Shown: piece after piece, positions 11,267-62,243 of the stretch
How positions within the stretch are numbered: position 1 is the stretch's first letter
How the letters are laid out: every line of letters starts with the position of its first letter
DNA from: Actinomycetales bacterium
GTDB lineage: Bacteria > Actinomycetota > Actinomycetes > S36-B12 > UBA5976
Assembly: GCA_027484085.1 (NCBI GenBank)
Contig: JAIXQF010000004.1
Location: forward strand, 1,768 to 65,767
DNA length: 64,000 nt
Direction: 5' to 3'
Position numbers and translations under genes: made by a program
Notes under the pieces: model-generated
What the model was told of the DNA's origin: nothing
Seen by the model: the letters and a program-made list of their open reading frames with translations, nothing else
Database searches by the model: none

Positions 11267-11920
11267 ATGACTGAAGCACCAGATCGAGGCGAGTTAGGCC
11301 CTGGCGAGTTTTATCCAGTGGTCGGCGTAGGACCACATCCATTGCCTTGGCCCACCGATGCGCATTTTGATCCTGAGCTGTTAGAGCTTGGTGATCGCCG
11401 AAATGTGGTGGACAAATATCGCTATTGGTCAGTTGAGGCAATTGTTGCTGACCTTGATAAGTCCAGAGCCAAACTTCACATCGCAATTGAGAATTGGCAA
11501 CATGACTTAAACATTGGATCTGTAGTTCGAACTGCAAATGCATTCAACGTTTCTGCAGTTCACATTGTTGGTAAGAAGGGCTGGAATCGACGCGGCGCCA
11601 TGGTCACCGATCGATACCTACATCTAATGCATCACCCAACTGTTGCGGAATTCATTCAGTGGTCCGAGGAAAAAAACGTTCCGATCATTGGCATCGACAA
11701 TGTGCCCGGTTGCGGAAACATTGAGAACTCGGTCTTGCCTGAATCCTGTGTTCTTTACTTTGGGCAGGAAGGTCCTGGACTCTCGCCTGAAGGAATCGCT
11801 GCATGTTCCCAAATTCTTGGAATCACCCAAAGTGGTTCAACCAGATCTATGAATGCATCAGCAGCTGGTGCAATTGCGATGTATGCCTGGGCCATGCAAA
11901 ATGTTCACGCACAAAACTAA
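11267..11920 (+). CDS. TrmH/SpoU-family RNA 2'-O-methyltransferase
   Basis: 217 aa. SVVRTANAF, FGQEGPGLS and SMNASAAGAIAMY motifs. The start abuts the previous stop. Confidence 0.85.
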   Translation: MTEAPDRGELGPGEFYPVVGVGPHPLPWPTDAHFDPELLELGDRRNVVDKYRYWSVEAIVADLDKSRAKLHIAIENWQHDLNIGSVVRTANAFNVSAVHIVGKKGWNRRGAMVTDRYLHLMHHPTVAEFIQWSEEKNVPIIGIDNVPGCGNIENSVLPESCVLYFGQEGPGLSPEGIAACSQILGITQSGSTRSMNASAAGAIAMYAWAMQNVHAQN

Positions 11921-13947
11921 CTAACTTTTGTTTTTACCGAATTGGATTTGGTTGAGTACAACCCTGATTGGGAATAAGTCACAACTCGAAAAATGTATTC
12001 ACGCTTTGAGTTCAGTCGGATTGAAAATGAAGCCTTACCAAATGCATTCGTGTACTTCGACTGCTTTGTAACCCACTTGCCTCGATACAGCATTTGAAGC
12101 GCTAGTTTTTGTCCAGAAACATTTGTGCCATTGACGGCCTTCATGGTGGAAGACATCACGAGTGATCGACCTTGCTTAGTCGTTGCCGGGACTTTTGCAA
12201 TCACAATTGTCGAGCTCGTAAATCCTTGAGCAATTAGTGCCCTTTGCACAGATTTACAGGAAGTTGCTGTAAATCCAGGAACTCTTGCATTCACTAACGT
12301 GAAGCAAGCGTTATTCATTGCTCTACCGAATTCAAAATAGTTAGCTGTTGGCGTTAAATTACTTACGGTTGCAAAAACCAGTTTGGACATTCGAACCGTG
12401 CCCTGGCATTCGCTTACAACATCGCATAGATCATTGTTTGTAACTGAGTTTGCATTTGATCCAAGTGCCGATATGTTTGCCGTGCCGACGGTTCCGCCGT
12501 TGGCGAGTAAAAAGGCAAGTCGATTAACGGGTCCGCTGTTATCGTGACTATCTCCAACTCTCCAGGCCCGATCTATTTTCAACACTGATGGTTGTCGGAG
12601 ATTTCGAATTCCATTGACTTGATAATCTTCGGCTATCTTCCAGGCAGGATCCGCGACTTCACCGGGCGCAACACTTAATTGATCCATAGCTTCACCGAAG
12701 ATGTCAGAAATTGCCTCACTCAATGCTGCTGTTTCAGAACTATCTGGCATTGCAGTATTAAAGGCCAGCGCAAAGGAAACACCATGTGCAAGTTCGTGCG
12801 CAATCACATCATCGCTGTGATCGTAATCTCTGCCAAGAAAGATTCCACTACATGCACCGGAACGGCAATCTGAAGAACTCCACGGGACCCAAAATGCATT
12901 TCCATACGGGCATGATCCATAAGTACCATCAGTTGCACAAACATCAATGAATGCACTGATGCGGGGAGTTAAGTCGCCGTTTACAGATTGGGAAATGTTT
13001 CCTAAGTATTGTTCTTCGTTGATGTCTATGCCGAGGACAGAATCGAAATAGTTCCAAGTTCTGATTATGTTTTGCTTTGCAGTATCAGTCGATGGCACAC
13101 CGAGGCCAGAAGTGTTTACTCCGCAAAGCGGTAGACCTTGTGAGGCAAGAGATACATTTACATATCTATTCCTATTGATATCTGCCGTTACGCCTGTCGG
13201 CAGCGCGTAACCTGGCGTTGACATATCAACCTGCAGGTCACATACAAATGGATCAGCCGTTATACCGCGGACAAACGGCAGCGATGACAAAACCTGCATT
13301 CCATCTTGCGATAGATATGTCATTGAAATTGATGCAGCGTTATTCATTTCTGAAGTAGATGCTCGCCAAGCCAAATACTTTCCACTTGGAACATCATCCA
13401 CTAATGCGCTATCCACTATTACTAGATCCAAGTCAGAAACTATGACCTGATGACTAGAGATGCCTTGGTGTTGCGCAAGTTTTAATTTCAGCAAGCTTGT
13501 TGCTTCTGCTGCGCTTAGTTCCGGTTGGGTATTTCCAAAATAATCGGAAATTGATTTTGTGTAAGACAGCAGAGATCCATCTGCGTTTACCGTAACTGCC
13601 AGAAGGGAGTTAGCTACTTCGATGTCATTAATCGTCTGCCCAAATCTCACCACGGTAATTCCAGCAATTCCATCAATAGATATCGTTGGTTGGAATTGAT
13701 TTGGATCAATACCCCAGTTGGCAGCATTAGCAATTAAATGTGCCCGGGCAGCTTTAACCGCATCACGCTCAATACGTCCAGGTGATTCAGGGCTCGACAC
13801 AACGCCGGATTCAATCAACGCAGTTGTGGTTGGTGAGGGATTCGGCCCTGAAATTGCATTTGCGGGCTGGGTTGTCATGCCTCCAGCAAGTAGCGCAAAG
13901 CTGAGCAGGTAAAGACCGCATCTTTTTGCACTGAGGAAGTTGCTCAC
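11917..13947 (-). CDS. Secreted M4 (thermolysin-like) zinc metalloprotease
   Basis: 676 aa. Signal peptide ending PANA, HELAHG zinc motif followed by ALSEAISDIFGE (third ligand Glu), propeptide-like N-terminal region, Lys-rich beta-type C-terminal domain. GTG start. Confidence 0.8.
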   Translation of the reverse strand: MSNFLSAKRCGLYLLSFALLAGGMTTQPANAISGPNPSPTTTALIESGVVSSPESPGRIERDAVKAARAHLIANAANWGIDPNQFQPTISIDGIAGITVVRFGQTINDIEVANSLLAVTVNADGSLLSYTKSISDYFGNTQPELSAAEATSLLKLKLAQHQGISSHQVIVSDLDLVIVDSALVDDVPSGKYLAWRASTSEMNNAASISMTYLSQDGMQVLSSLPFVRGITADPFVCDLQVDMSTPGYALPTGVTADINRNRYVNVSLASQGLPLCGVNTSGLGVPSTDTAKQNIIRTWNYFDSVLGIDINEEQYLGNISQSVNGDLTPRISAFIDVCATDGTYGSCPYGNAFWVPWSSSDCRSGACSGIFLGRDYDHSDDVIAHELAHGVSFALAFNTAMPDSSETAALSEAISDIFGEAMDQLSVAPGEVADPAWKIAEDYQVNGIRNLRQPSVLKIDRAWRVGDSHDNSGPVNRLAFLLANGGTVGTANISALGSNANSVTNNDLCDVVSECQGTVRMSKLVFATVSNLTPTANYFEFGRAMNNACFTLVNARVPGFTATSCKSVQRALIAQGFTSSTIVIAKVPATTKQGRSLVMSSTMKAVNGTNVSGQKLALQMLYRGKWVTKQSKYTNAFGKASFSIRLNSKREYIFRVVTYSQSGLYSTKSNSVKTKVS

Positions 13948-14081
13948 ACATCCAATCTACGTCAGATGCTGAAAAATGCTGACCCACCTAAATCCAAGAA
14001 CCGCCCAAGAATGCAGGGTGCGGTAGTCTGCAATTACCCACAAATAAGGCCCACATTGGGTGTTTACGAAGGCGATCAAAT

Positions 14082-16277
14082 ATGAGCGATTCAATGACCT
14101 TGCGACTAGTAGTAGGTCTGGCCATCACGATAGTGCTTTCTGCACTTGCCTTGAAGCGTTTGTGGTTCTTGAATCAATTGGTTCGAAGCGGTGAACCTGC
14201 TGTGGATCGCACAGCGCAAAAACGAGTTCGCGCAAAAGCTGAGGTCACCGAGGTTTTTGGTCAGAAGAAGCTTTTAGCTTGGACTGTTCCTGGCATCGCT
14301 CACGTTTTGGCGTTCTGGGGATTCATAGTTTTGTCCTTAACTATTGTCGAGGCTTTCGGCGCATTGTTTGACTCGGAATTTGCAATTCCAGTTATTGGCC
14401 GTTCCCCAATTGTGGGTTTCGCTGAAGACTTGTTTTCAATTTTTGTACTAATTGGTATTGCGATGTTTGCAATCATCCGGCTATTTAGAAATCCAGTAAA
14501 GCTAGGCCGTGAATCACGTTTCTACGGATCACATACGGGCGCCGCTTGGTTTGTACTTTTCATGATCTTCAATGTGGTTTGGACTCTGCTGTTATATCGT
14601 GGCGCGCAATACAACGTAAGTGCTGAATTAGGTACCAATAACTTCCCATTCATGGCGGGTGGCGCATTCGCTTCCGAAGCAACCGCTGCACTATTGCAGC
14701 CACTTGGTCTACATACGAATGAGTGGCTGGAAATGATTGGCCTTTGGCTAAACATTGGGGTAATCCTTGGCTTCTTAGTTTTGGCGCTTCATAGCAAGCA
14801 CTTGCACATTGGCGCTGCGCCATTAAACGTTTTGTTTAGTCGCCGACCAAATGCACTTGGACCACTGCTTCCGATTTATACCGGCAAAGAAGTTTTGAAC
14901 TTTGAGGATCCAGCCGATGATGCAATTTTTGGTCGCGGAAAAATTGAGGACTTTACGTGGAAAGGTAACTTAGACCTTTTAAGTTGCACCGAGTGTGGTC
15001 GCTGTCAAGATCAATGCCCAGCGTGGAATACCGGAAAACCACTAAGTCCAAAACTCATGATCATGGATCTTCGCGATCATCTATTTGCAAAAGCTCCTTA
15101 CATTCTTGCTGGCAGTGACGACTCAAAACTTGAAGGTATGAGCGCTGCAGTTCAAGCTGAAGTAGCCCGACCTATGGTTGGCTCTCGCTCCGATGATCCA
15201 AACGCATTAACTGATGGTTACGACGCTACTGGTCACCGCTCGAGTGAGGGTGCTGTCATTGATTACGATGCACTTTGGTCCTGCACATCTTGTGGTGCCT
15301 GTGTTCAGCAATGCCCAGTCGACATTGAACATGTGGATCACTTCATGGATCTTCGTCGTCATCAAGTTCTCGTGGAATCTGAATTTCCTGCCGAACTAAA
15401 CGGACTATTCAAGAACCTGGAAACCAAGGGAAATCCATGGGGAATGAACACCAGTGGACGTTTGACCTGGATTGAAGAGGTGGAATTCCCAGTTCGGGTA
15501 TTTGGCATGGATGGTGAAGACAAGATTCCTGCTGATGTTGAGTACCTATTCTGGGTTGGCTGCGCCGGTGCGTATGACGATCGTGCCAAGCGCACAACAA
15601 AAGCAGTGGCTGAATTACTTCATACTGCGGGAATTGAATTCATGGTTCTCGGTGAAGGTGAGACCTGTACTGGAGATCCTGCCCGTCGCGCTGGTAACGA
15701 ATTCCTGTATCAAATGCAGGCCGCCCAAAACGTTGAGGTACTTAATGAAATTGGTGCAAAGCGAATTGTTGTCACCTGCCCGCATTGCTTGAACACAATT
15801 GCCCGCGAGTACCCACAACTTGGTGGTGACTACGAAGTTGTGCACCACACGGTTTTGCTAAATCAGCTCGTCTCTGAGAATCGTCTGACTATGTTGACTC
15901 CTGAAGATGAAACAGTTACCTACCACGATCCGTGTTACCTAGGTCGTCACAACAAGATCTACATGCCACCTCGCGAATTGATTACAAACATGCCAGGCAT
16001 CAACTTGGTTGAAATGGATCGCAACAAAGAAAAGTCATTCTGTTGTGGTGCTGGTGGCGGCCGAATGTGGATGGAAGAAACTATCGGAACTCGCGTAAAC
16101 ATGAATCGTGGCGATGAAGCACTTTCCACTGGCGCAACCAAGATTGCCGTTGCATGCCCGTTCTGTTCTGTGATGCTAAATGATGCTGTAACTGTTCGCG
16201 GTCAGGAAGCTGGTGGCGATCCGGCTGCTGAAGTTGTTGACGTTGCAACTTTGCTTTTGGATCGAGTCAAGCGCTAG
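14082..16277 (+). CDS. Membrane-anchored Fe-S oxidoreductase (HdrD/GlpC/DsrK-like, Rv0338c-like)
   Basis: 731 aa. N-terminal polytopic membrane domain, two CxxCxxCxxxCP ferredoxin motifs ([24 protein letters not shown]), two CCG-type Cys-rich domains (CPHC, DPCYLG, CCGAGGG, CPFC). Confidence 0.85.
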
Positions 16278-17005: not shown

Positions 17006-17587
17006 ATGACTTCACTTTCGAAATTAACCCGAATCCTTGGCTCGGTTCTATTGGTAGGCCTAGGAACACTGCTTCCTATGACGGCAGCAAACGCCCATAC
17101 CGATTTAGTGAACACCACACCTGTTGCTGACTCTGACGTTCTAGCTTCCGAACCCATTATTTCCCTTACGTTTGCCGAGCCAGTTTTAGTTGATGGCGCC
17201 GCGATTGTTGTGTTGAATTCAGCCGGTGACACACTGAATACTCCAACCCCAACGCTTGAGGGTGCAACTATCTCAATTCCTTGGCCAGTTGATCTAACGC
17301 CTGGTCAAGTTACGGTTCAATGGCGAGCTACCGGCCAAGATGGTCACGTGCTGACTGGTGAATTTGGTTTCAATTACACCGCAGCAGCCGAAGGTGGCAT
17401 GGCACCGAATCCAACAAATAGTGCAGTACCAACTGAGTCAGAAGCTACTGCCACACCTGAAACAGTTGCGATGCCACTTGGAGCCGAAGATTCAGCTGCT
17501 GGAAGTAACAACCTTGTAATCGGAATTGCGATCGTGTCCTTAGTAGGACTTGTGGCAGCAGGTATGTTCCTTCGACGTAGTAAGTAA
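17006..17587 (+). CDS. CopC-domain copper-binding protein, exported with C-terminal membrane anchor
   Basis: 193 aa. Signal peptide ending ANA followed by HTDLVNTTP (mature N-terminal His, typical of CopC/YobA) and a C-terminal TM helix. Confidence 0.8.
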
Positions 17588-17594
17588 GGCTTCT

Positions 17595-19544
17595 ATGAAG
17601 AGTGTTATTGCAAGACTAGGAATCTTCCTGCTTGCAATATCCTCTTTCTCTGCTGTTCTTATCTATGGCGGCGCTGCTTGGGCTCCACTTCCGGACGGCA
17701 TTCCTGATTCAGGTCAGGCCACAAGTTGGACTTTGCAACTCGCAGTCCTGGCGCATGTGGTGCTCGGGCTTCGAGTTTTTGGATTGCTTGTGACCTGGAC
17801 CTTTATCGCACCAACTTCCAGTGAAACAATCTCGCGTGAAGGTCGTTCGGCAATCTTGTACGCAAGTGCGATCGCTGGACTATGGTCGTTCTCTGCGATT
17901 GTTGCTGGCTTAGCAACGATGGCAAATGTCTTGGGTGTTCCATTAAAGGAAGTCTTTCGCCAAGGATTTATTGCAACGTACTTGATGTCTCTTCCACCTT
18001 CTCGAAGTTACATAATCACAGCGCTCATAGCATTGGCGATTGCAGCAGCTGGTATTTTCTTAGTTTCCCTTAACTCAATTGCACTCTTAGCTGCTTTGGC
18101 TGGTGCTGGTATCGCATCGCCACTTTTGAATAGTCATGCCGCATCACTTGGAAGTCACTCCTTAGCAATAACTACATCAGTTGCACATGGCTTGGCAATG
18201 AGTGCCTGGGTGGGCTGCCTGTGGGCTGTTTCGAGTTTTGTAAAAGGTAAGGATCTTAAGGTTGTGGCTCGCTTTTCGGCACTTGCTGCAACCAGCGTTG
18301 GCGTGCTTGCTATTTCAGGAGTTGCCGCTGCATATGCGCGACTCGATTCAATCAGCGATCTTTGGCTTAGTCGCTACGGACAAATCACTGTTTTGAAGGT
18401 TGTATTCTTCGCGATCCTAATGATCCTGGCTATTCAAATCCGAGCCCGACTAACTTCAACAGGCAGTCTGAAAAAGTTCTTGTCACTGGAAATCTCAATT
18501 ATGGCTATCGCTATCGGTGTTGGCGTAGCCCTTCATTCCACCCCAATGAGCCGCGAATCAGCGCCATTTAATTCCGCTGGTGAGGAAATCCTTGGTTTTG
18601 CATATCCGCCACCGCCAACCATTTCTACAGTCATCCTTGGTTGGAATCCGGAATGGTTTATGTTGACCGCAAGTTTGGTTGCCGCATCTCTTTACTCATT
18701 TGGTTTGATTCGTCTCAATCAAAATCAAATCAAGTGGAGCGCGTTGCGCACAATTTCCTTCATGGTCGGAATTGGTTTAGTTATTTGGACTACTAATGCT
18801 GGAATCAGCATGTATTCAAAGGTGTCTTTTGAGTACCACATGATTCAGCACATGACTCTTTCCATGATTGCTCCCATTTTCATTACCCTGGGAACACCGA
18901 TAACTTTGGCACTTCGCGCTCTCCCAGCTCAGAAAACTTCTGAACATAGAAGTATTCGGGAATGGATTTTAGCTTTGCTCCACAGTGGTTATTCAAACCT
19001 AATAACTCATCCACTAATGGTTTTGGCAATCTTTACATTTGGTTTGTATGGCATGTACTTCACTCCGCTGTTTGCCACATTAATGGGGAGTCACACTGGA
19101 CACATCTTTATGGAGCTTCACTTCTTGATTTCGGGTCTGTTGTTCTCGTACGTTGTAATTGGCGCAGATCCAAGTCCTCGCAAAGTTCCGTATTGGGCCA
19201 GGCTCATGATCGTGTTGGTAGGACTTTCGCTTCATGCCTTCTTTGCAATTGCAATCATGCAGTCGAGTGAACCAATCGGTGTTGACTGGTACATCCAAGT
19301 GCAGCCACCCTGGATTACAGATCTGATTGCAGATACAACAGCTGGTGGCAGCATTGCCTGGGCACTAGGTGAGATTCCGACTTTCTTACTTCTAGTGATT
19401 GTGGCTGTGATGTGGTCGCGTAGCGATACCCGATTGGCCAAACAGCTAGATCGCGCTGCGGATCGTGATGGGGATGCGGAACTAAAGGCGTATAACGCAC
19501 AGCTAAGTGAATTGAACAGCAGAGACAATTCGACTAACGAATAA
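17595..19544 (+). CDS. CopD / cytochrome-c-oxidase-assembly CtaG-like fusion membrane protein
   Basis: ATG 17595 is preferred over the track start 17550, which overlaps copC. About 650 aa polytopic protein. The N-terminal half is CopD-like, the C-terminal half caa3-CtaG-like (HMIQHMTLSMIAP). Confidence 0.78.
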   Translation: MKSVIARLGIFLLAISSFSAVLIYGGAAWAPLPDGIPDSGQATSWTLQLAVLAHVVLGLRVFGLLVTWTFIAPTSSETISREGRSAILYASAIAGLWSFSAIVAGLATMANVLGVPLKEVFRQGFIATYLMSLPPSRSYIITALIALAIAAAGIFLVSLNSIALLAALAGAGIASPLLNSHAASLGSHSLAITTSVAHGLAMSAWVGCLWAVSSFVKGKDLKVVARFSALAATSVGVLAISGVAAAYARLDSISDLWLSRYGQITVLKVVFFAILMILAIQIRARLTSTGSLKKFLSLEISIMAIAIGVGVALHSTPMSRESAPFNSAGEEILGFAYPPPPTISTVILGWNPEWFMLTASLVAASLYSFGLIRLNQNQIKWSALRTISFMVGIGLVIWTTNAGISMYSKVSFEYHMIQHMTLSMIAPIFITLGTPITLALRALPAQKTSEHRSIREWILALLHSGYSNLITHPLMVLAIFTFGLYGMYFTPLFATLMGSHTGHIFMELHFLISGLLFSYVVIGADPSPRKVPYWARLMIVLVGLSLHAFFAIAIMQSSEPIGVDWYIQVQPPWITDLIADTTAGGSIAWALGEIPTFLLLVIVAVMWSRSDTRLAKQLDRAADRDGDAELKAYNAQLSELNSRDNSTNE

Positions 19545-20319
19545 ACCGGTCTTTTTGAAATGGGTGTTCGTTTCTAAAGTCAGCAACCTGCGATAGATCA
19601 ATTTCTGCGTAAAGGACTTCTTCTTTCTCGCCAGCCTCGGCAATGATTTCGCCACGCGGATTTACGACCATTGAATGTCCGCCCAACATTATGTCACCAT
19701 TAGGGCCAACTTCATTACAAGCAATAACCCAAGCTTGGTTTTCAATAGCCCTAGCTTGGTTCAAAACTCGCCAATGATTAATGCGAGGCGTTGGCCAGCC
19801 CGAAGTAATAAGAATTGTTTCTACGCCTTGATCATTCATCCCTCGGAACAATTCAGGGAATCGTAAGTCATAACAAATTGCCAACCCGACGTGACCGACT
19901 GGACTATTGGTGACAGTAACGATTTCGGTTCCACGGTTTAGCAAAATTGCTTCACCATGATCGAAGCCATAAAGATGGATTTTGCGGTAGAACTCGACAA
20001 TATCACCGGACGGATTAATCAAGACTGCAGTGTTTGCCATTCCGCCATCTTGGAGTCTCTCTACGAACGAGCCGCCATGAAGCCAAAAGTTTCCGGTCTT
20101 AGCTCGTTCTTGAAGCGCAGTAACTAACTCACCATCGCGCGGTTGAGCATAAGTTTCGAGAGCGCCTGAGTTGAACGCACCGATATTCCAAAGTTCAGGA
20201 AGCACAACTAGTTCGCATTTACCCTTTTGCTGGTCAACTAAATCTAAAACTCGAGGAACTCTTACTTCCGGAGTCTCGGAATCACTGACATCAACCTGCA
20301 GAAGAGCTACCCGATTCAT
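19534..20319 (-). CDS. Carbon-nitrogen hydrolase (nitrilase superfamily, omega-amidase-like)
   Basis: 261 aa. Catalytic Glu (VLPELW), Lys (YRKIHLY) and Cys (LAICYDLRFPE). Confidence 0.85.
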   Translation of the reverse strand: MNRVALLQVDVSDSETPEVRVPRVLDLVDQQKGKCELVVLPELWNIGAFNSGALETYAQPRDGELVTALQERAKTGNFWLHGGSFVERLQDGGMANTAVLINPSGDIVEFYRKIHLYGFDHGEAILLNRGTEIVTVTNSPVGHVGLAICYDLRFPELFRGMNDQGVETILITSGWPTPRINHWRVLNQARAIENQAWVIACNEVGPNGDIMLGGHSMVVNPRGEIIAEAGEKEEVLYAEIDLSQVADFRNEHPFQKDRFIR

Positions 20320-20360: not shown

Positions 20361-21887
20361 CTAGATATCTAGAACTAACGTTGATCCAGTGCCACGCGAA
20401 ACGCATGGGTACATGACACCAATTGCATCCTTATCCTCGTCACTCATGACGGAATCGAGATGCACGGGCTGTCCTTTGAGAACCCGAACTTCGCAGGTGC
20501 CGCAAACTCCTTCACCACACGAGGAAATCAAGGCGCCACCGTTTTCATTCAGAGCTTCAAGTAAGGACTGATCCTTTCCAACTGAGACGGTTACATTAGA
20601 GCGGGAAAGCGTAACGTCAAACGCTTCCACGATTGCATTATCACTTCGATCAACTGCGCTGAACCGCTCATAGTGAAGGCGCTCTGCTGGCACTCTTGAG
20701 ATCAAAGCATCAAGTAGTGGCTCAGGTCCACAAACATAAACATGTCCATTGAACCCAACAAGTAATGCATCTAGATCTGCGCGGCCACCCTGCTCATCGT
20801 CGGCATGAATGATCACTCGATCGCCAAACATTTCTCGAAGTTCATTCGTGTAAGCCATCGTGGCGCGAGACCGACCTGCATAAAGTAGTCGCCATTGCCG
20901 TCGACTTGGTAATGATTCAATCATTGCCTTGATTGGCGTAATCCCAATTCCACCAGCAATAAATAGGTATTCACTGGAAGCTTCGAGTTCAAAGTGATTG
21001 TGCGGTCCCGAGACATCAATTGTCATTCCGGCTTTCAGGTTGTTATGAACATAGCGACTTCCACCTCGAGACTCAGGTGATTCCAAAACTGCGATTGAGT
21101 ATTGGGAGCGATCGGCTGGATCCCCACACAAGGAATACTGTCGCTTCATGCCATCAGGTAAATGTAAAGTTACGTGAGCTCCCGGCACCCAAGGATCCAA
21201 ATTGGATCGGTCTGGAAGGACAAAATTAAAACCTAGAATTCCTTCGGCCAACGGAGTAACGGTATCCACTACAACGCTGTGCAAATTCTCTGAGTTTTGA
21301 TTCGCCCTACGACCCTCAACTGTGGCCGATAACGTTTTTGCAGATTTAGGGAAGAGAATTCTTACAATCAAAGCAACGGTTGTCAGAGTAATCAGAGTGA
21401 GTGCGGTGATCCGATAAGCCCAGGCCCGAACATCAGTGCCCGACCATCCCGCATGGAATGAAACTAGTAACACCAATGCGTAACTTGAATAGTGAATTGC
21501 CTTCCAATATTTTCGAGGCAGCTTTTTCATCATCAATGACGTAGTCTGCACTGCGATCAAAATGTATGTGCAAATAACACCAAGTGCAATTGGCCAGCCA
21601 CCTAGCCAGGCAATCTTTTGGTATTGCGAATGAAACGGAATGAACAAGTCTTGCAAAGTAAACGCCGCGTACTCGTCAATGAAAAGCGAAACCATGTGAA
21701 TTCCGACAAACACAACTGATAATCCCGAAAGCCATCTGTGTAGATCCAGTAGCCAACTTGGGTTGTCTTTTGGTTTCATCACACGAGTTGCTAGCAGAAT
21801 TCCCCAAGTCACACTAATGACCATCAAGGCCCAAGCAATGATTGCGCTAGCTCGTGTTACGTACCACCAAATTGCTGGATCTAACAT
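20361..21887 (-). CDS. Fusion of a ferric-reductase/MsrQ-like haem-b TM domain, a PDR-type flavin/NAD reductase and a plant-type 2Fe-2S ferredoxin
   Basis: The N-terminal ~180 aa form 6 TM helices with paired His (HRWLSG, GIHM, HYSSY, SFHAG). Then RQYSL flavin motif, GGIGITP NAD motif and C-terminal CGEGVCGTCE...C. The track start TTG 21902 is possible, but I prefer ATG 21887 (MLDPAIWWYV), which aligns with the paralog at 25938. Confidence 0.8.
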   Translation of the reverse strand: MLDPAIWWYVTRASAIIAWALMVISVTWGILLATRVMKPKDNPSWLLDLHRWLSGLSVVFVGIHMVSLFIDEYAAFTLQDLFIPFHSQYQKIAWLGGWPIALGVICTYILIAVQTTSLMMKKLPRKYWKAIHYSSYALVLLVSFHAGWSGTDVRAWAYRITALTLITLTTVALIVRILFPKSAKTLSATVEGRRANQNSENLHSVVVDTVTPLAEGILGFNFVLPDRSNLDPWVPGAHVTLHLPDGMKRQYSLCGDPADRSQYSIAVLESPESRGGSRYVHNNLKAGMTIDVSGPHNHFELEASSEYLFIAGGIGITPIKAMIESLPSRRQWRLLYAGRSRATMAYTNELREMFGDRVIIHADDEQGGRADLDALLVGFNGHVYVCGPEPLLDALISRVPAERLHYERFSAVDRSDNAIVEAFDVTLSRSNVTVSVGKDQSLLEALNENGGALISSCGEGVCGTCEVRVLKGQPVHLDSVMSDEDKDAIGVMYPCVSRGTGSTLVLDI

Positions 21888-22750
21888 GAATATCTTTCCC
21901 AATTCTTTGAAGTGTGAACTTGATTCGTACTGTCAACAATTAGGGCAGCAACTCCTAAGGAATCAATCCGCGTAATTCCCTCGTGTGCTCCCAAGATAAC
22001 GCACATTTTTGCTAGAACTTCCGCCTGAGCAGCATTCTGAGAAATTACTGTCGCCTGTAGAACATCTGATTCTGAACTTCTATGTGTTCGAGGATCAATA
22101 ATGTGATGCGCGCTACCGCTTTTCCATCCCATTGGACTAGAGGTGGCTAATCCGCCGCGGCTTAATGAAACAGAACTAATGAATCTGTCAGCATCCGCTG
22201 GATCAGAGATGTTTACTTTCCATCCCGCAGCACCAGATGCCATACCCTTTACCGCCACGTCTCCACCTGCAAATACAGCAACGCCCATAGCTCCGAGTTG
22301 CATTGCGTAATCGCTCATTAAATCTGCTGCAAGGCCTTTCCCAATTCCGCCGGCATCAAGTGCAACGCCGCGTGGGACGCGAACTGACTTTGCATCTAGA
22401 TCAATCTCGACATCAGATAAGTTTGCGGACGTTTTTGCTTTTGTAGTCCAGTTAGTTACATTTTCTGCATTAGAACGACTTCTTGCAAAGCCCAAATCAA
22501 TCATCTCGCCAAGGATGTTGCCACTGTAAAGACCTTGAGTCAGTTCAAATCCCAACTTCATCTCACTGACAAGTCGAAGTGTCGCATCACTGACTTGGTG
22601 CAATGAGTCAGGGTTGTTGTTTAGTCGCATAACTTCTGAATCAGGAATAAATCGAGACCATTTACTCTCGAGCTCAATCGCAAGAGCATAGATGGCATCA
22701 CAGATGGATTTGTCAGCTTCAACTAACAAGCAAAAGAAACTTGTTCCCAT
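21881..22750 (-). CDS. apbE: FAD:protein FMN transferase (ApbE family), no signal peptide
   Basis: 289 aa. AMGT-type N-terminus, SRFIPDSEVMRLN, LDAGGIGKGLAAD, FAGGDV, GLATSS, HHIIDPRT, AAQAEVLAK. The in-frame stretch between the upstream TAA and ATG 22750 has no ATG/GTG/TTG/CTG, so no longer form with a signal peptide is possible. Confidence 0.88.
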   Translation of the reverse strand: MGTSFFCLLVEADKSICDAIYALAIELESKWSRFIPDSEVMRLNNNPDSLHQVSDATLRLVSEMKLGFELTQGLYSGNILGEMIDLGFARSRSNAENVTNWTTKAKTSANLSDVEIDLDAKSVRVPRGVALDAGGIGKGLAADLMSDYAMQLGAMGVAVFAGGDVAVKGMASGAAGWKVNISDPADADRFISSVSLSRGGLATSSPMGWKSGSAHHIIDPRTHRSSESDVLQATVISQNAAQAEVLAKMCVILGAHEGITRIDSLGVAALIVDSTNQVHTSKNWERYSC

Positions 22751-22815
22751 CGCATCGAAATCAATGCGTTGAGTTACTCCTGTCGCCGAACTCCCGATGG
22801 TAATTATGTTCTCGA

Positions 22816-23292
22816 CTAAACCTGGGTAAGTACGTATCCGTACTTAGCATTTTTACATTGACCAGTTGCGGTTGGGTTCTCGGTCTTGCCACCCGGAGAC
22901 ATACAGGTGTAAACAACCGAAGCAGTTGGTGCTGAAGGTGCTGCTGCAGGAGTTTTCGTAGCTGTTGGTGCTACCGGTGTAGCAGGTGCCACAGTCGCAG
23001 CCGTGGGACTGCCCGGTTTCGTAGGAGCGGCTTGAGTAGTCGGAGCAATTGTTGCCGATGGTGTTACTTGCGTTACCGAACTACTTGGCATAGTGGTAAC
23101 CGGTACTAGATTTCCATTTGCATCTGTGCTTGTTGGTTGGATTGGCACGCCGCTTGAATCAACTACATTTGCAACTAGCTCGGCTTGATGCGTGTTCCAA
23201 GCAAAGCTGGTGACCACGCTAACAAATGCAGTAGTGGAGATCCCAAGCGTTGCAATTCTTGCGCGGCGGGCTGGGTGAGGATTTCGTTTCAT
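22816..23292 (-). CDS. Membrane-tethered mini-protein A: RR-containing signal anchor, Pro/Thr/Ala-rich linker and conserved C-terminal CX15C motif
   Basis: 158 aa. MKRNPHPARRARIATLGISTTAFVSVVTSF, about 90 aa low-complexity linker, then VVYTCMSPGGKTENPTATGQCKNAKYGYVLTQV. Paralog at 26510..27034. TAAtcATG coupling to the upstream gene. Confidence 0.6.
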   Translation of the reverse strand: MKRNPHPARRARIATLGISTTAFVSVVTSFAWNTHQAELVANVVDSSGVPIQPTSTDANGNLVPVTTMPSSSVTQVTPSATIAPTTQAAPTKPGSPTAATVAPATPVAPTATKTPAAAPSAPTASVVYTCMSPGGKTENPTATGQCKNAKYGYVLTQV

Positions 23293-23294
23293 GA

Positions 23295-23717
23295 TTAATC
23301 ATCATCCTCATCTTCATACTCATCGTCTTCATCATCGTCTTCATCAGCGTCTTCATCATCGTCTTCATCGTCGTCTTCATCCTCTTCACCATTGGAGGGA
23401 TTCGGGTTGTCATAAACCACGTTTGGATTGGCAGGATCGACGATTGTGCCGACAGCTGGGGTGTTCGGATCTACTGCCGGTTGTGTAGCAGCCGTTCCAT
23501 CACTGGAAATCGGAGTTTCAGCAGTCCCTGGCACAACAGCATCAGACTGTGGTGTCTCCACAGCCACCATGTCGGTGGGAGGCAGCAAACTTGTGGTTGC
23601 GGTTCCAACTGTAGATTTTGTCGGTGTAATGAGCGCCTGGGTATTAATGGCAGCAGCTGCGGTGCCAGTAAGCAAAACAGCGGATAGTGCGAGGCTGGTG
23701 CTAAATTTTGATTTCAT
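23295..23717 (-). CDS. Exported protein with a 30-residue poly-Asp/Glu C-terminal tail
   Basis: 140 aa. Signal peptide MKSKFSTSLALSAVLLTGTAAAA, Pro/Thr/Ala-rich middle, tail GEEDEDDDEDDDEDADEDDDEDDEYEDEDDD. Confidence 0.62.
   Translation of the reverse strand: MKSKFSTSLALSAVLLTGTAAAAINTQALITPTKSTVGTATTSLLPPTDMVAVETPQSDAVVPGTAETPISSDGTAATQPAVDPNTPAVGTIVDPANPNVVYDNPNPSNGEEDEDDDEDDDEDADEDDDEDDEYEDEDDD
23321..23380. repeat. Five tandem 12-bp units (consensus catcgtcttcat) encoding the acidic tail
   Basis: catcgtcttcat / catcgtcttcat / cagcgtcttcat / catcgtcttcat / cgtcgtcttcat read directly. In frame, one unit is 4 codons. Confidence 0.85.
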
Positions 23718-23762
23718 GTCTCAAAACTAGCTATTGGATTCCCTAGTTTGAGTCGGTGTTTA

Positions 23763-23781
23763 TCCAAGAAATAGCCAAGAA
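23763..23781. promoter_or_regulatory. Candidate OmpR-family response-regulator box (direct repeat ccaagaaa, 11-bp period)
   Basis: ccaagaaa at 23763-23770 and 23774-23781, in the 111-bp divergent region between the acidic-tail operon and the response regulator gene. A degenerate look-alike ccaataaa/ccaaaaga lies at 27134-27151, upstream of the second module. Confidence 0.25.
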
Positions 23782-23828
23782 AGGCTTTGCGGTAGGAATC
23801 GGCCCAAAAACCCGAGAAAATAGACATT

Positions 23829-24506
23829 ATGCGTATTCTGCTGGTTGAAGACGACCCTTCCGTGGCTGCCAGTGTTATTGATGGATTGGTAAATGCCAAC
23901 TTAGAAGTTGAACATGTATCAACGGGCAGTGATGCGATTTCGAAAGCGCTGGCCCAAGACTTCGACCTGATACTTCTTGATCTTGGGCTTCCAGATATGG
24001 ATGGACAAGATGTTTGTCGTTCCGTGCGCGAAACCTCAACAACGCCGATCATAGTTTTGTCTGCGCGAAGTGAAGAGATAGACCGAGTTCTGGCTTTGGA
24101 ATTTGGAGCGGACGATTACATGGTTAAGCCATTTGGGATGCGTGAACTTGTCGCGCGCATCCGAGCCGTTGCCAGACGAGTAAGTCCTACCGAATCGGGT
24201 CCAGTTGCTGCAACTCAGAATATCGGCGCGTTAAGTATCGATCGACGTTCTCAGAAAGTCTTCATTAATGGCGAGGATGTTTATCTCACTCCTAAAGAAT
24301 TCGATTTGCTCGCATATTTAGCAACAGATCCTGGTGCGGTTTACCGACGCAATGACATCATGAATGAAGTTTGGGATACCAATTGGTACGGGACTACAAA
24401 AACTGTTGATGCACATGTGGCAGCCCTCCGAAAAAAACTTGGTAACCAGGACTGGATCGAAGCAGTAAGAGGCGTTGGATTCAGGTTGGGAGATCCCAAC
24501 TCGTGA
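23829..24506 (+). CDS. OmpR/PhoB-family response regulator
   Basis: 225 aa. MRILLVEDD, phospho-acceptor LILLDLGLPDMDG, winged-helix C-terminus (LTPKEFDLLAYL...VRGVGFRL). Confidence 0.93.
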   Translation: MRILLVEDDPSVAASVIDGLVNANLEVEHVSTGSDAISKALAQDFDLILLDLGLPDMDGQDVCRSVRETSTTPIIVLSARSEEIDRVLALEFGADDYMVKPFGMRELVARIRAVARRVSPTESGPVAATQNIGALSIDRRSQKVFINGEDVYLTPKEFDLLAYLATDPGAVYRRNDIMNEVWDTNWYGTTKTVDAHVAALRKKLGNQDWIEAVRGVGFRLGDPNS

Positions 24507-25888
24507 AATGGAGATTGGTAGCAGCGCTGCTTTCTCTGACAATTGTTGTTTTGGCTGTGCAGGATATTCCGTTAGTTCAGTACTTGCGCACGGTAGAGAC
24601 AGATCGCATCACCACAGCTCTAGAGCGAGATAGTTTTGTTATTGCAGGTCGTGCAGAGGAAACTCTTGAATCCCCGACCCCGGCAGGAATTGATTTTGTT
24701 CAAACTGCAATCACGAAATACAGCGGTGAAAGCGGCGCTCGTGTTGTTGTCGTGGACATTAACGGAGTCGCCATTGCGGACTCGGATTCTCAGGACGCAA
24801 TTGGGACCTCGTTCTTTAGTAGACCTGAAGTCGCAGAAGCACTTAACGGTTCAGTCTCGATAGGTAGACGATTTTCTACTACCGCGAACCAAGAGCTTCT
24901 ATTTGTAGCCGTTCCGATTCTGAATGGCCCTAATACCCTTGGCGCAGTAAGAATCACATTTCCAGCATCTGTAGTGGATGAGGCTGTAAATCAAAGAATT
25001 CGTGGCATCAGTTCGGTTGCTGGTATCGCATTGATCGTTTCGGTACTTGTTGCACTGGTACTCGCGCTTGGAATTACTCGGCGTTTGTCAGATCTAAAAA
25101 ATGTGACGGATGAATTCACCGAGGGTAACTACAAAGTACGTGCAGAAATTGACAGTGGCGCTCCGGAGATTCGTTCGCTGGCCAATAGCTTTAACGGCAT
25201 GGCTCAAAAGCTGGATAAATTGATCACGCAACAGAAAGCTTTTGCTGGCGATGCATCACATCAACTTCGAACCCCTTTAACGGCATTGCAACTTCGACTA
25301 GAGCGTGCAGCAGAACTTCTGGAAACAGATCCTGCGGGAGCTGCTGAGCGAATTGAAGCAGCGATAGCAGAAGCTGATCGCCTCCAGAGATTAGTTGAAG
25401 GACTACTTGCGCTTAGTAGATCTGAAAATGCAGACTCAATCGCGCGAATCAAATGCGATGCTGCACAGATTGCTAGGGAAAGATTTCAAAGCTGGGAAGC
25501 ACTTGCCGATGAGCAGGATGTTGAACTTGTCCTTAATGTCCCCGAAGCAGCAATGATCTTGGCTATTCCTGGAACCTTGGAGCAAATCATAGATAACTAT
25601 GTCGATAACGCATTGGCTGTTGTTCCTGCTAACTCAAAAATCTGCATTGAAGTTACAGCCGGGGTTGAGTTAACCAAAATTTCCGTGCTCGATGAAGGCC
25701 CCGGTATTCCAGAATCTGACCTTGCTAAAGCCTTCAATCGATTTTGGAGAGCGCGTAGCGACTCCGATGGTTCAGGTTTAGGTCTGGCAATTGTTGATCA
25801 GTTAGCAACGTCGAGTGGCGGTAGGGCTGAAGTCGTGAATCGGACTCCTCATGGCCTAAGCGCAGACGCATACTTCCCTACTGCTTAA
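24503..25888 (+). CDS. Sensor histidine kinase (2 TM, ~150-aa extracytoplasmic sensor, HAMP, HisKA, HATPase)
   Basis: 461 aa. GTGA overlap with the regulator. H-box FAGDASHQLRTPL, N-box DNYVDNAL, G-boxes LDEGPGI and GSGLGLAIV. Confidence 0.9.
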   Translation: MKWRLVAALLSLTIVVLAVQDIPLVQYLRTVETDRITTALERDSFVIAGRAEETLESPTPAGIDFVQTAITKYSGESGARVVVVDINGVAIADSDSQDAIGTSFFSRPEVAEALNGSVSIGRRFSTTANQELLFVAVPILNGPNTLGAVRITFPASVVDEAVNQRIRGISSVAGIALIVSVLVALVLALGITRRLSDLKNVTDEFTEGNYKVRAEIDSGAPEIRSLANSFNGMAQKLDKLITQQKAFAGDASHQLRTPLTALQLRLERAAELLETDPAGAAERIEAAIAEADRLQRLVEGLLALSRSENADSIARIKCDAAQIARERFQSWEALADEQDVELVLNVPEAAMILAIPGTLEQIIDNYVDNALAVVPANSKICIEVTAGVELTKISVLDEGPGIPESDLAKAFNRFWRARSDSDGSGLGLAIVDQLATSSGGRAEVVNRTPHGLSADAYFPTA

Positions 25889-25937
25889 CGCGATTTCCGC
25901 ACTATAACTTCTTTCCTGCTTGAGGAATTGAAAAAGG

Positions 25938-26507
25938 TCAGCGCTTTTTGACTCTAGTAGCCCTTAATCGGACGATAACGGCAACGATTGTTAACAGAAT
26001 TAGTGAAATTCCAATCGCTCTATATATCCAATTGCTTGCATCCGTACCAGTCCAGCCCGCATGAGCAGAAACCAGAAGTACCAGCAGATAACTTGAGTAG
26101 TGAACTGCTTTCCACGCTCTGGTTGTCATCTTCTGGCGGAATAAGGAAGTTAGTTGCACTGCAAAAAGGATGTGAAGCGACAAGACACCAAACGCTATTG
26201 GAAATCGACCTAGTGACGGATTCTTTACATAATCCGAGTGAAATGGCACAGCGATATCCAGAACAGTAAACGTTACAAAGCTATCTAACATCAAAGAAGT
26301 AATGTGGGTTACTGCAAAGACAAATGTTAAGCCAGACAACCAATTATGAAAATGAAACAACCAACTTGGACTATCGTTTGGCTTTAAGACTCGAGTCGAA
26401 AGCAAGATTCCAATTACAACTGCGACCACAAGTAAACTCCACGCAACAATTCCACTAGCGCGACTTACAAACCACCAGATGGCAGGCGTATCTAGTTGCA
26501 AGTTCAT
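25938..26507 (-). CDS. Ferric-reductase/MsrQ-like haem-b membrane protein (TM domain only)
   Basis: Aligns along its length with the N-terminal domain of 20361..21887 (LDTPAIWWFVSRASGIVAW / HNWLSGL / HYSSYLLVLLVSAHAGWTGTD). ATG 26507 follows the upstream stop as TAGtcATG. The track start 26537 is also possible. Confidence 0.8.
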   Translation of the reverse strand: MNLQLDTPAIWWFVSRASGIVAWSLLVVAVVIGILLSTRVLKPNDSPSWLFHFHNWLSGLTFVFAVTHITSLMLDSFVTFTVLDIAVPFHSDYVKNPSLGRFPIAFGVLSLHILFAVQLTSLFRQKMTTRAWKAVHYSSYLLVLLVSAHAGWTGTDASNWIYRAIGISLILLTIVAVIVRLRATRVKKR

Positions 26508-26509
26508 GA

Positions 26510-27034
26510 CTAAACCAAGGTGAGGACGTATCCCCATTTAGTTGGACAGCTCGGTGTGCCGCCTGGCTCTCGAGTATTTCCCCCAGGGGACATACAGGTG
26601 TAAACAAGCACAGGTTCTTCTGGCGCAACATTTTCAACATCTGGCGAAACGGGTATCGACGGGCTTGCCGGTTGTACTCCACTGGTCAACGTTGGTGAAG
26701 GGTTGACAACAGGCGCTGCTGATTTTGTTGGGCTTGCACTTGGTTGAGTATTGGTGGCTAGAGAAGCATCATCATCAACAGATGGAGCAGAGGAAGGAGA
26801 AGAACCCAAAGTTGGCAATTGTGCCACTGGGGATTCGGTAACAGAAATCGGGTTTTGGGTGACTAGAACTTCTGGGGCCAGAGGCAGGTTTTCCCCTGCG
26901 AATTTCACACTCTTATCTGGTGAAAGATCTTGTGATTCCGAAATGAATCCGGAGACCATTGTCACGAAGGCTGCAGCGCTCACACCGGTTGCCACCAGAC
27001 GGCTTCGCAATGCGGGCTTGAATCGCAACTTCAC
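26510..27034 (-). CDS. Membrane-tethered mini-protein B (paralog of 22816..23292)
   Basis: GTG 27034 is preceded by GGAG at 8-nt spacing and gives MKLRFKPALRSRLVATGVSAAAFVTMVSGF, parallel to MKRNPHPARRARIATLGISTTAF of A. Ser/Pro-rich linker, C-terminus VLVYTCMSPGGNTREPGGTPSCPTKWGYVLTLV. Confidence 0.6.
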   Translation of the reverse strand: MKLRFKPALRSRLVATGVSAAAFVTMVSGFISESQDLSPDKSVKFAGENLPLAPEVLVTQNPISVTESPVAQLPTLGSSPSSAPSVDDDASLATNTQPSASPTKSAAPVVNPSPTLTSGVQPASPSIPVSPDVENVAPEEPVLVYTCMSPGGNTREPGGTPSCPTKWGYVLTLV

Positions 27035-27195
27035 AGTCAAAACTCCAGATGATGCACGCGAGGGTATCTGCGTGGGTAACTAAATTCTAAATGAGCAAAT
27101 AGTCCGCGCAATTGCTGGTAATCCTTTGTTATTCCAATAAACGCCAAAAGAAGTGAATATTTAGCGTAACTATTTAATGTTTAACAAAAGTTCAT

Positions 27196-61843: not shown

Positions 61844-61845
61844 CG

Positions 61846-62241: not shown

Positions 62242-62243
62242 CT

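Follow-up and report, generated by a model that had tools for sequence, protein, structure and literature searches.

The 64-kb stretch of Actinomycetales DNA analysed here (contig JAIXQF010000004.1; hereafter the window) comes from a small freshwater actinobacterium and carries a cluster of redox genes in which, on the open reading frame (ORF) map, two paralogous electron-transfer modules, A and B, flank a single two-component system. Both modules pair a small protein with one membrane helix (mini-protein A or B) with a membrane protein of the ferric-reductase domain (FRD) family; module A also includes an exported protein with an acidic tail, an ApbE-family flavin mononucleotide (FMN) transferase and, fused to its FRD, a flavin/NAD/2Fe-2S reductase. 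An initial annotation had listed eight genes here, and the ORF map together with profile searches reproduced them, with their order, their strands, both short-gap junctions and the 41-nt gap between the fusion and a downstream C-N hydrolase gene. The features of the cluster are as follows (+, forward strand; -, reverse strand).

19534-20319, -: C-N hydrolase, Nit/omega-amidase-like (Pfam CN_hydrolase, 1.5e-54)
20361-21887, -: FRD-FAD-NAD-Fer2 fusion, 508 amino acids (aa) from its ATG (Pfam Ferric_reduct, FAD_binding_6, NAD_binding_1, Fer2)
21881-22804, -: ApbE-family FAD:protein FMN transferase, no signal peptide (Pfam ApbE, 2e-41; first ATG at 22750)
22816-23292, -: mini-protein A (ORF map, alignment; no meaningful Pfam/NCBIfam match)
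23295-23717, -: acidic-tail exported protein (ORF map; no Pfam family)
23759-23781, -: putative response-regulator operator, direct repeat TTCTTGGCTAT TTCTTGGATAAA (repeat conservation across loci)
23829-24506, +: response regulator, OmpR/PhoB-type, divergent from module A (Pfam Response_reg, 3.9e-26; Trans_reg_C, 2.2e-23)
24503-25888, +: sensor histidine kinase with an extracytoplasmic Cache-like loop and HAMP, HisKA and HATPase_c domains (Pfam, NCBIfam)
25938-26507, -: FRD-B, transmembrane-only (Pfam Ferric_reduct, 1.3e-7)
26510-27034, -: mini-protein B, paralogue of mini-protein A (no meaningful Pfam/NCBIfam match)
27084-27111, -: promoter-like element of module B, TTGCGC-16 nt-TAGAAT (conserved in 6 loci)

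The genes within each module are tightly spaced. The acidic-protein gene meets mini-protein A as TAAtcATG and mini-protein B meets FRD-B as TAGtcATG, while the start of the kinase gene overlaps the regulator stop by 4 nt. The fusion starts with the ATG at 21887 (MLDPAIWW), which overlaps the ApbE stop as ATGtTAG, and thus the TTG at 21902 is not its start. Two further starts were corrected, that of FRD-B to 26507 (the ORF runs to 26537) and that of mini-protein B to the GTG at 27034 (the ORF runs to 27040). The module B genes converge on the kinase gene. A 15-nt imperfect direct repeat, ACTTCCCTACTGCTT / ACTTCTTTCCTGCTT, lies at 25872-25921 across the kinase stop and the 50-nt convergent gap between kinase and FRD-B, and no terminator hairpin was found in that interval.

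The duplication of mini-protein plus FRD that had been noted in the initial annotation is far above chance level. The FRD of the fusion and FRD-B are 57% identical across 174 residues (E 2e-68), and the two mini-proteins are 33% identical (E 3e-18). Guanine-plus-cytosine (GC) content is even across the region, at 46-49%, and this uniform composition gives no sign that the cluster was acquired by horizontal transfer. An Rfam scan of 16-29 kb of the window returned nothing credible.

Distribution of the operon

The mini-proteins were found in a restricted set of genomes. A search with mini-protein B returned 26 clusters only, from metagenomes or metagenome-assembled genomes (MAGs), and the pattern [YF]TCMSPGG was found at 4 loci in 185,579 species genomes, all of them lake Nanopelagicales/Actinomycetota MAGs, and at 27 loci in Joint Genome Institute (JGI) metagenomes. 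We annotated 33 related loci, mostly from freshwater metagenomes or MAGs, by comparison with the proteins of the window (L numbers denote individual loci). In all 33, the mini-protein gene adjoins the ApbE gene, the FRD gene or both, in line with the pairing of mini-protein and FRD in the initial annotation.

Four arrangements were observed. In the first, mini-protein B, FRD-B and ApbE stand together; in the second, which is the commonest, a two-component system lies beside the acidic protein, mini-protein A, ApbE and the FRD fusion; in the third, modules A and B occur together, as in the window; and in the fourth, a two-component system lies beside the acidic protein, mini-protein A and a divergent ApbE of 49% identity, followed by a transmembrane-only FRD. 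The set that is constant across these arrangements is therefore mini-protein, ApbE and FRD; some genomes do without the NAD(P)H/2Fe-2S module, and some without the acidic protein. Folate genes, the C-N hydrolase and the copper genes copCD that flank the cluster are 85-97% identical among the related loci, and for this reason their conserved synteny says little about function. The redox genes themselves evolve, or are exchanged, faster than their surroundings, as judged from one sub-lineage with the fourth arrangement (L016, 3284-4791), in which mini-protein A is followed by the divergent ApbE (49% identity) and a transmembrane-only FRD (66%) while the flanking hydrolase is 90% identical.

Whichever cluster gene comes last, the C-N hydrolase gene follows it in all clade loci that extend far enough, and it is probably co-transcribed. 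That it forms part of the electron-transfer system is doubtful; neither the hydrolase nor copCD lies beside any of the five outgroup operons described next.

Five outgroup loci (L034-L038; GC content 56-73%) were recovered by the FRD-B search, which gave relatives at 34-42% identity. All five carry an operon of an acidic-tail exported protein, a single-pass protein, a signal-less ApbE (33% identical to that of the window, E 2e-50) and a five-helix FRD, and four of the five have a divergent two-component system beside it; in L037, the FRD carries a fused PDR-type reductase. When mini-protein A was compared with the outgroup single-pass protein by BLASTP, no significant match resulted. A hidden Markov model (HMM) of the first 41 mini-protein residues, run against 466 six-frame outgroup ORFs, picked out exactly the ORF upstream of ApbE, in three loci, with E values from 5e-8 to 9e-7. 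The tails of the outgroup single-pass proteins are low in complexity (AP-, PT- or GS-rich) and lack the Cys-containing C-terminal segment, or knob, found in the freshwater clade. As the outgroup operons carry the anchor protein without the knob, the knob is a late addition in the freshwater clade.

On these comparisons, the conserved unit is an acidic-tail protein, an anchor protein, a cytoplasmic ApbE and an FRD, usually with a two-component system, and it extends to distant high-GC Actinomycetota. The co-occurrence of mini-protein and FRD proposed in the initial annotation is thus borne out, but a unit of those two genes is too small, since the conserved one adds the acidic-tail protein, the cytoplasmic ApbE and, usually, the two-component system.

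Proteins and regulatory elements of the cluster

Both FRDs have five membrane helices, based on hydropathy and AlphaFold2, and the Pfam domain begins at the first of these. The first helix of the six-helix relatives is missing, and with it the full six-helix core of the di-haem FRD superfamily. Four His residues are invariant in 18 FRD sequences, outgroups included (His54/His68 and His136/His149 in FRD-B numbering); the members of the two pairs lie 14 and 13 residues apart, which is the NOX-type di-haem spacing and suggests that each FRD binds two haems. The AlphaFold2 model of the FRD, with a predicted local distance difference test (pLDDT) score of 80-93, has STEAP1, Streptococcus pneumoniae NOX (SpNOX) and NOX5 as its top Foldseek matches (probability 0.96-0.99), and in a weak profile match between FRD and SpNOX (E 0.5) both His pairs fall on SpNOX His residues. 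The NCBIfam MsrQ model gives FRD-B only 20.8 bits against a cut-off of 130. With five helices and four invariant His residues, these are NOX/FRE-like di-haem domains rather than strictly MsrQ-like ones, which corrects the 'MsrQ-like haem-b membrane protein' of the initial annotation. A further residue, Thr38 of L-[A/S]-T-[R/K], located where the first helix ends on the cytoplasmic side, is also invariant in the 18 sequences.

The reductase part of the fusion contains RQYSL, GGIGITP, YVCGP and CGEGVCGTC..C (CX4CX2C...C, plant-type 2Fe-2S). These correspond to the RxYS of FAD_binding_6, the GGxGxxP of NAD_binding_1 and a C-terminal Fer2 domain, and thus to a PDR/PaaE/Hcr-type module. The NCBIfam matches are PaaE/Hcr-like, and because every equivalog model scores below its cut-off we claim no specific orthology. 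The parts required to pass electrons from NAD(P)H through flavin and 2Fe-2S to two haems b are therefore all encoded, sequence motifs included, as had been read from the sequence at the outset.

The two mini-proteins share one plan. Mini-protein A has an HPAxxxR anchor, one transmembrane helix, a linker (about 100 residues, rich in Pro, Thr and Ala) and, at its C-terminus, the CX15C knob (VVYTCMSPGGKTENPTATGQCKNAKYGYVLTQV); mini-protein B has a KPALRSR anchor, one transmembrane helix, a linker and the knob LVYTCMSPGGNTREPGGTPSCPTKWGYVLTLV. The anchor signature is [H/K]-P-A-x-x-[S/A]-R-x4-G-[VIAL]-S, followed by one hydrophobic helix. Among 32 distinct sequences, its Ala and Arg are invariant, the Ser seven residues past the Arg is present in 31 and the Gly at +5 in 28. 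The basic residues ahead of the helix point to an N-terminus inside the cell and the remainder of the protein outside. We considered Tat export, which would permit a cofactor to be loaded in the cytoplasm, and rejected it since the twin Arg is not conserved (RR, RG, HR, LR, FR and LG are seen). The linker, in which Pro, Thr, Ala and Ser are frequent, varies in both length and sequence.

The knob, a 30-residue segment at the extreme C-terminus, has the consensus (V/I)(Y/F)TC(M/K)SPGG-x-T-x-x-P-x3-G-x-C-x2-5-G(Y/F)-x-(L/I)-T-x-(I/V). Its Cys pair is invariant and its Met mostly conserved. The CX15C spacing described in the initial annotation holds in most members, but some B members have CX14C, and the knob itself is clade-specific. 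An AlphaFold2 model of mini-protein B from 16 sequences (pLDDT 78-85 at residues 141-176) predicts two paired strands, 145-150 and 170-175, joined by a Cys-flanked loop. Neither the mini-proteins nor the acidic protein had a meaningful Pfam or NCBIfam match as whole proteins, and the knob alone, searched against Pfam at E values up to 10, matched no family; the earlier expectation that the mini-protein C-terminus belongs to no known domain family is upheld by these profile searches. An exhaustive profile search of 1.84 billion representative proteins found about 11 true clusters with the knob, all with a single common architecture, all from one freshwater Nanopelagicales-like clade and, barring a few short fragments, 109-196 residues long. 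The knob is, as far as these profiles indicate, a new domain of very narrow distribution; the N-terminal anchor is the widely conserved part of the mini-protein, and the knob is a clade-specific addition to it. That the knob is a truncated FMN_bind domain was rejected, as there is no profile signal and the end residue is the same in both paralogues and in all orthologues.

The acidic-tail protein begins with a Sec signal peptide (..AAA|INTQ), which is followed by the conserved segment TxGTAxTxLLP, a linker rich in Pro and Thr, the sequence VVYxNPNPSNG and, at the end, the poly-Asp/Glu tail. Orthologues are present in 21 loci, and the protein is homologous to the product of the first gene of the L037 outgroup operon (E 4e-10). 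In many related loci (L004, 6012-6494; L005, 4535-5026; similarly in L009, L012, L016, L017 and L025), a further gene, which the window lacks, is inserted between those for the regulator and the acidic protein. Its exported product is a paralogue of the latter that shares the N-terminal TxGTAG segment and has a Pro-rich tail, but lacks the poly-acidic end.

ApbE appears to be encoded with an unusual start. The Pfam profile begins at the first Met, encoded by the ATG at 22750, and a conserved QRIDFDA is encoded in frame upstream of that ATG, where no ATG, GTG or TTG is available. The window shares this in-frame QRIDF(D/Q)A, upstream of the first ATG and without a canonical start, with L005, L010, L025, L027 and L029, and the other ApbE orthologues carry an ATG at the corresponding upstream position. 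Translation probably starts at an ATT or ATC about 18 codons upstream of the ATG, near 22804-22796; such a non-canonical start may keep translation low.

No signal peptide or lipobox was found in 31 ApbE orthologues or in the outgroup ApbEs, which have 0 to about 25 polar residues before QRIDFxAMGT (up to about 22 in the orthologues) and no hydrophobic N-terminal segment. The enzyme is thus predicted to be cytoplasmic, consistent with the initial description of it as signal-less. GGIGKG, ATSS (with the Ser) and HHIIDP (with the catalytic His) are in register with the structures 1vrm, 6nxi and 5mgy and are kept in all orthologues; the catalytic His and Ser align to those of the Vibrio cholerae (His257) and Thermotoga maritima enzymes. 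With the PF02424 profile, GGI(A/G)KG and the catalytic His and Ser all present, the protein belongs to the ApbE family. One segment departs from the family pattern: A-D-x-L-(S/A)-T, which holds the Mg2+ site and the third member of the triad, reads AEVLAK throughout the clade and AEALTK, AEVFTK or AEAYAT in the outgroups. The Asp-to-Glu change in it is a conservative one, and the Thr is replaced by Lys in the whole clade. Close relatives of this ApbE (≥75% identity) form at least 120 clusters in the protein collection, and no outgroup is among the matches listed.

The canonical substrate motif of ApbE, D-x-x-[S/T]-G-A-[S/T] (PMC12052999), was found in no cluster protein by a motif scan. In the window, neither the mini-proteins and FRD-B nor ApbE and the acidic protein contain the loose form [S/T]G[A/S][S/T], and [S/T]GA[S/T] occurs in just one or two orthologues of mini-protein A and of the acidic protein. 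In agreement with the initial annotation, Pfam and NCBIfam detect no FMN_bind protein, MsrP-type molybdoenzyme or PepSY protein in the cluster, and likewise no DUF2271 or DUF3570. One loose match, [S/T]G[A/S][S/T] at the C-terminus of the fusion (SRGTGSTLVLDI), in the last loop of the ferredoxin, was considered as a general ApbE target and rejected, since the loop varies (GVGTAL), has no Asp and is absent from transmembrane-only variants that still retain ApbE. With the canonical motif missing and the sole recurrent loose match variable and without Asp, ApbE is an orphan within its own operon. Cytoplasmic ApbEs are known (PMC12052999), and about 4% of ApbE-encoding genomes have no known substrate (PMC8238504).

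The two modules differ in their upstream regions. The direct repeat TTCTTGGCTAT TTCTTGGATAAA, with 11-bp spacing, lies 42 to 64 nt upstream of the acidic-protein ATG. It is found at the identical distance from the start codon in 17 distinct loci, with an invariant second half-site, and this distance is kept also in loci that have a further gene between regulator and acidic gene. Within the 64-kb window there are 2 matches at ≤3 mismatches, compared to 0.02 expected. The adjacent system is of the OmpR/PhoB type (receiver plus winged helix, HisKA kinase, direct-repeat half-sites about one helical turn apart), and we infer that the TTCTTGG repeat is an operator bound by the response regulator. 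The best NCBIfam matches of the regulator are CreB, CseB and PhoB, all below cut-off, and the HprR score is likewise below cut-off.

The second operator-like site, at 13989-14011 (-; TTCTTGGGCGGTTCTTGGATTTA, 3 mismatches), is 42-64 nt upstream of the GTG of a gene for a secreted, thermolysin-like M4 metalloprotease (11917-13947, -; Peptidase_M4_C, FTP propeptide, HELAH motif). As this is the same start-codon distance as for the acidic-protein gene, the protease may share the regulon. The region upstream of module B has no TTCTTGG repeat. Instead, 6 loci share the element TTG(C/T)(G/A)(C/T)-16 nt-TA(G/C)AAT ahead of mini-protein B, a putative promoter that scores below the threshold of the consensus scan; a generic promoter and terminator scan gave hits no more numerous than in shuffled sequence. 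Lacking the repeat and having its own conserved promoter-like element, module B is probably expressed differently from module A.

Known relatives and possible roles

The closest described systems are the 'MsrQ-like' flavinylation-associated clusters, mostly actinobacterial, in which a PF01794 protein is found with ApbE and, typically, a secreted FMN_bind protein, often with a NAD-binding domain (PMC8238504, PMC11334425). Outward transport of electrons from NAD(P)H has been proposed for these clusters, some of which have a link to iron uptake (Meheust et al. 2021, PMC8238504; Huang et al. 2024, PMC11334425). The operon described here resembles them in combining FRD and ApbE in an actinobacterium, and its PF01794 gene lies within five genes of ApbE, the distance used to define the class, with adjacency in all related loci. 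It differs in having no FMN_bind, DUF2271 or DUF3570 protein and no [S/T]GA[S/T] motif, in its cytoplasmic ApbE, in its five-helix FRD, in a reductase with a 2Fe-2S domain, and in the acidic-tail protein and the HPAxxxR single-pass protein that fill the partner positions. As both the substrate domain and motif and the ApbE signal peptide are missing, the operon is not a strict member of the class but an undescribed subtype of it. The MsrQ-like survey selected for a signal peptide on ApbE or on its substrate (PMC8238504), a filter that would drop the present type, which has neither FMN_bind nor signal peptide; the consulted part of the supplementary text of PMC8238504 has no Nanopelagicales entries. 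The initial claim of an undescribed system is thus upheld for the subtype and not for the system as a whole, since clusters of FRD and ApbE have been catalogued (PMC8238504).

Other known systems are less similar. Like Escherichia coli MsrPQ/HprSR, the cluster has an FRD-family membrane protein beside a divergent OmpR-type two-component system and would deliver electrons to the envelope, but no MsrP molybdoenzyme domain occurs among the cluster proteins, which excludes membership; moreover, E. coli MsrQ has six helices, one haem and a cytoplasmic-face FMN (PMC12525009), whereas five helices and four His residues, suggestive of two haems, are found here. The NOX and FRE enzymes (S. pneumoniae NOX, 8qt6; NOX5; yeast FRE) and STEAP share the fold and two His pairs spaced 13-14 residues apart, and NOX/FRE proteins share with module A a C-terminally fused cytoplasmic flavin/NAD(P)H dehydrogenase. 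NOX/FRE enzymes, however, have six helices, no ferredoxin domain, no ApbE, no such single-pass subunit and no acidic-tail partner, and the helix number and the extra ferredoxin set the system apart from the NOX enzymes. FRD-Fer2 long forms (architecture M8; Zhang et al. 2013, PMC3591440) likewise have FAD_binding_6, NAD_binding_1 and a C-terminal plant-type 2Fe-2S domain on an FRD, but the architecture alone has been catalogued, and not its operon context, partners or link to ApbE. Finally, the cytoplasmic ApbE of Klebsiella pneumoniae and ApbE-fumarate reductase fusions (PMC12052999) also act in the cytoplasm without a signal peptide; these enzymes flavinylate a soluble reductase that has FMN_bind and the canonical motif, whereas the cluster has no such target.

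We lean, tentatively, towards a regulated transmembrane electron exporter of the FRD (NOX/FRE/STEAP/MsrQ) superfamily, built of two modules, with the anchor protein as an obligate small subunit and a metal as the likely acceptor. Module A would be switched on by the adjacent OmpR-type two-component system through the TTCTTGG direct repeat, and electrons would then pass from cytoplasmic NAD(P)H through flavin and 2Fe-2S to an inner and on to an outer haem b, both bis-His ligated. Module B, under its own promoter, would depend on a separate electron donor, for instance menaquinol or a soluble reductase, because it has only the di-haem membrane domain. Each five-helix FRD would be paired with its dedicated single-pass protein, of which the juxtamembrane motif and the helix would be the essential part; in the freshwater clade, the tail of this protein would span the cell wall and end in a small, disulfide-stapled beta knob. 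The acceptor would most likely be Fe(III), and possibly Cu(II), captured at the outer face by the secreted protein with the poly-Asp/Glu tail. The cytoplasmic ApbE would install or supply FMN for the complex at a site other than the canonical motif. Iron is suggested by the proposal that MsrQ-like, ApbE-linked actinobacterial clusters are assimilatory iron reductases (PMC8238504), by the poor growth of a Bifidobacterium breve apbE mutant under iron chelation (PMC5449479) and by the chemistry of the poly-carboxylate tail.

Several observations weigh against a metal-reducing exporter of this form. No metal transporter (VIT1, FTR1, EfeU, FeoB) was seen among the genes annotated around the cluster or beside the outgroup operons, the copC/copD adjacency is not conserved outside the clade, and no metal-binding motif is common to all family members. 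The Met of the knob sequence TCMSPGG is Lys in two clusters, which weakens it as a universal metal ligand, and the outer-loop His of PFHS is lost in the outgroup FRDs. An AlphaFold2 run on the concatenated mini-protein and FRD of the window plus FRD-only rows gave no confident placement of the mini-protein on the FRD (pLDDT <56 for the mini-protein part). No ApbE substrate with a canonical motif or domain was found in the cluster. The window has just one other operator-like site, that of the M4 protease, and this agrees with envelope or nutrient stress as well as it does with metal limitation.

The orphan state of ApbE could also mean that the enzyme has a new kind of substrate, in which FMN is covalently attached in the cytoplasm at a non-canonical site of the complex, and this tethered flavin, not a metal, is the point at which electrons enter or leave. 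We consider this unlikely, although it is the main rival reading. ApbE is kept in all four arrangements, even with a transmembrane-only FRD, and retains its catalytic His and Ser; it lacks a signal peptide throughout, as do the known cytoplasmic ApbEs (PMC12052999), and neither the canonical motif nor an FMN_bind, DUF2271 or DUF3570 domain is available to it in the cluster, a situation shared with the roughly 4% of ApbE genomes without known substrate (PMC8238504). Flavin at the cytoplasmic face is also used by E. coli MsrQ and STEAP (PMC12525009). Three candidate sites can be named. The first is the anchor Ser, seven residues past the conserved Arg, in TGVS or LGIS and, in one outgroup (L038), TGAS; its conservation (31/32), with that of the Gly at +5 (28/32), speaks for it. 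The second is the invariant Thr38 of L-[A/S]-T-[R/K] on the first FRD helix, and the third a Thr or Ser of the knob (TCMSPGG), which would be modified before Sec export. However, none of the candidate sites has the Asp that is strictly conserved in the motif, the residue ahead of the anchor Ser is mostly Val or Ile and not Ala, one outgroup has Gly in place of this Ser, and small residues at helix starts commonly serve packing. Activity of the enzyme could be altered by the Thr-to-Lys and Asp-to-Glu changes at its Mg site, and the true substrate could be encoded elsewhere in the genome, as the negative results cover the 64-kb window. A fuller version of the idea is slightly less probable again: FMN on the anchor Ser (or the FRD Thr) would make the complex a flavo-di-haem exporter in which the mini-subunit contributes both the sixth helix and the flavin, to which the freshwater clade would add a 30-residue, disulfide-stapled extracellular domain.

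The position of the two-component system permits a third reading. In E. coli, hprRS lies divergent from msrPQ, and the regulator and kinase here stand in the same way to an FRD operon. By analogy, the cluster could respond to oxidative damage in the envelope, with the two-component system sensing oxidants or misfolded exported proteins, the exporter re-reducing oxidised Met or Cys, and the knob serving as carrier or sacrificial target. The invariant Cys pair and mostly conserved Met of the knob, the regulator's match to HprR, albeit below cut-off, and the operator-like site ahead of the secreted M4 protease, as expected of a protein-quality regulon, are compatible with such a role. We regard it as improbable, since the cluster contains no MsrP-type molybdoenzyme, thioredoxin-like protein or DsbD/CcdA (Pfam/NCBIfam), the knob is absent from the outgroup operons and hence cannot be the core function, and its Met is Lys in some members. 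We know of no precedent for electron transfer from haem b to a disulfide, and nothing was found in support of the thiol-repair relay that the initial annotation had suggested.

The copper genes upstream, which were correctly identified from the start, point to a copper-delivery route to cytochrome oxidase: a 193-aa CopC is followed by a 664-aa CopD-Caa3_CtaG fusion (17006-19544, +; Pfam). The cluster could accordingly be a dedicated cupric reductase that feeds Cu(I) to CopC/CopD-CtaG for oxidase assembly, the Cys/Met knob serving in Cu(I) hand-off. FRD enzymes such as STEAP and FRE act on Cu(II) and not only on Fe(III), and the copper genes lie beside the cluster in every clade locus that reaches far enough. 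These loci are all close relatives with 85-97% identical flanks, however, so that the adjacency carries little weight; CopC/CopD are near none of the five outgroup operons, and in the window the cop genes are on the strand opposite to module A, beyond the hydrolase gene, with no operator copy upstream. The link to copper drawn from this adjacency in the initial annotation therefore has no independent support, and a dedicated cupric reductase is very unlikely. The least credible alternative is a bacterial enzyme resembling NADPH oxidase, which would make superoxide from O2 outside the cell: SpNOX and NOX5 rank high among the structural matches and the order of FRD, flavin and NAD domains resembles that of NOX, but the extra 2Fe-2S domain, the transmembrane-only variants, the constant ApbE and the two exported proteins have no NOX counterpart, and O2 reduction requires none of these accessories.

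Most extracytosolic electron transfer by flavoproteins has been attributed to ApbE-dependent flavinylation, with a residue of orphan-ApbE genomes (PMC8238504). The cluster provides a concrete, compact and widely sampled orphan case, in which a cytoplasmic ApbE without canonical substrate is found with two undescribed small proteins and a putative di-haem membrane cytochrome. Working out the role of this ApbE would extend the substrate rules of the family or reveal another role for the enzyme. Freshwater actinobacteria with streamlined genomes are very abundant in lakes, and such work would also show how they send reducing power to the cell surface, for example in Fe or Cu acquisition. If the system is an ordinary metal reductase with accessory anchors, the gain would be modest.

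Neighbouring genes

Three further observations concern genes outside the cluster. The longest ORF for CopD-CtaG, which begins at the first TTG, overlaps the CopC gene by 38 nt; its orthologues start about 15 codons later, past the CopC stop. Close to the cluster, at 14082-16277 (+), lies a gene, syntenic in L001, for a 731-aa membrane redox protein that combines a multi-helix domain at the N-terminus with two 4Fe-4S motifs and a pair of CCG (HdrD/GlpC-like) domains. Near the far end of the window, at 61457-63783 (-), TadB/TadC-like and TadE/TadG-like small membrane proteins are encoded, probably as a Flp/Tad pilus assembly locus.

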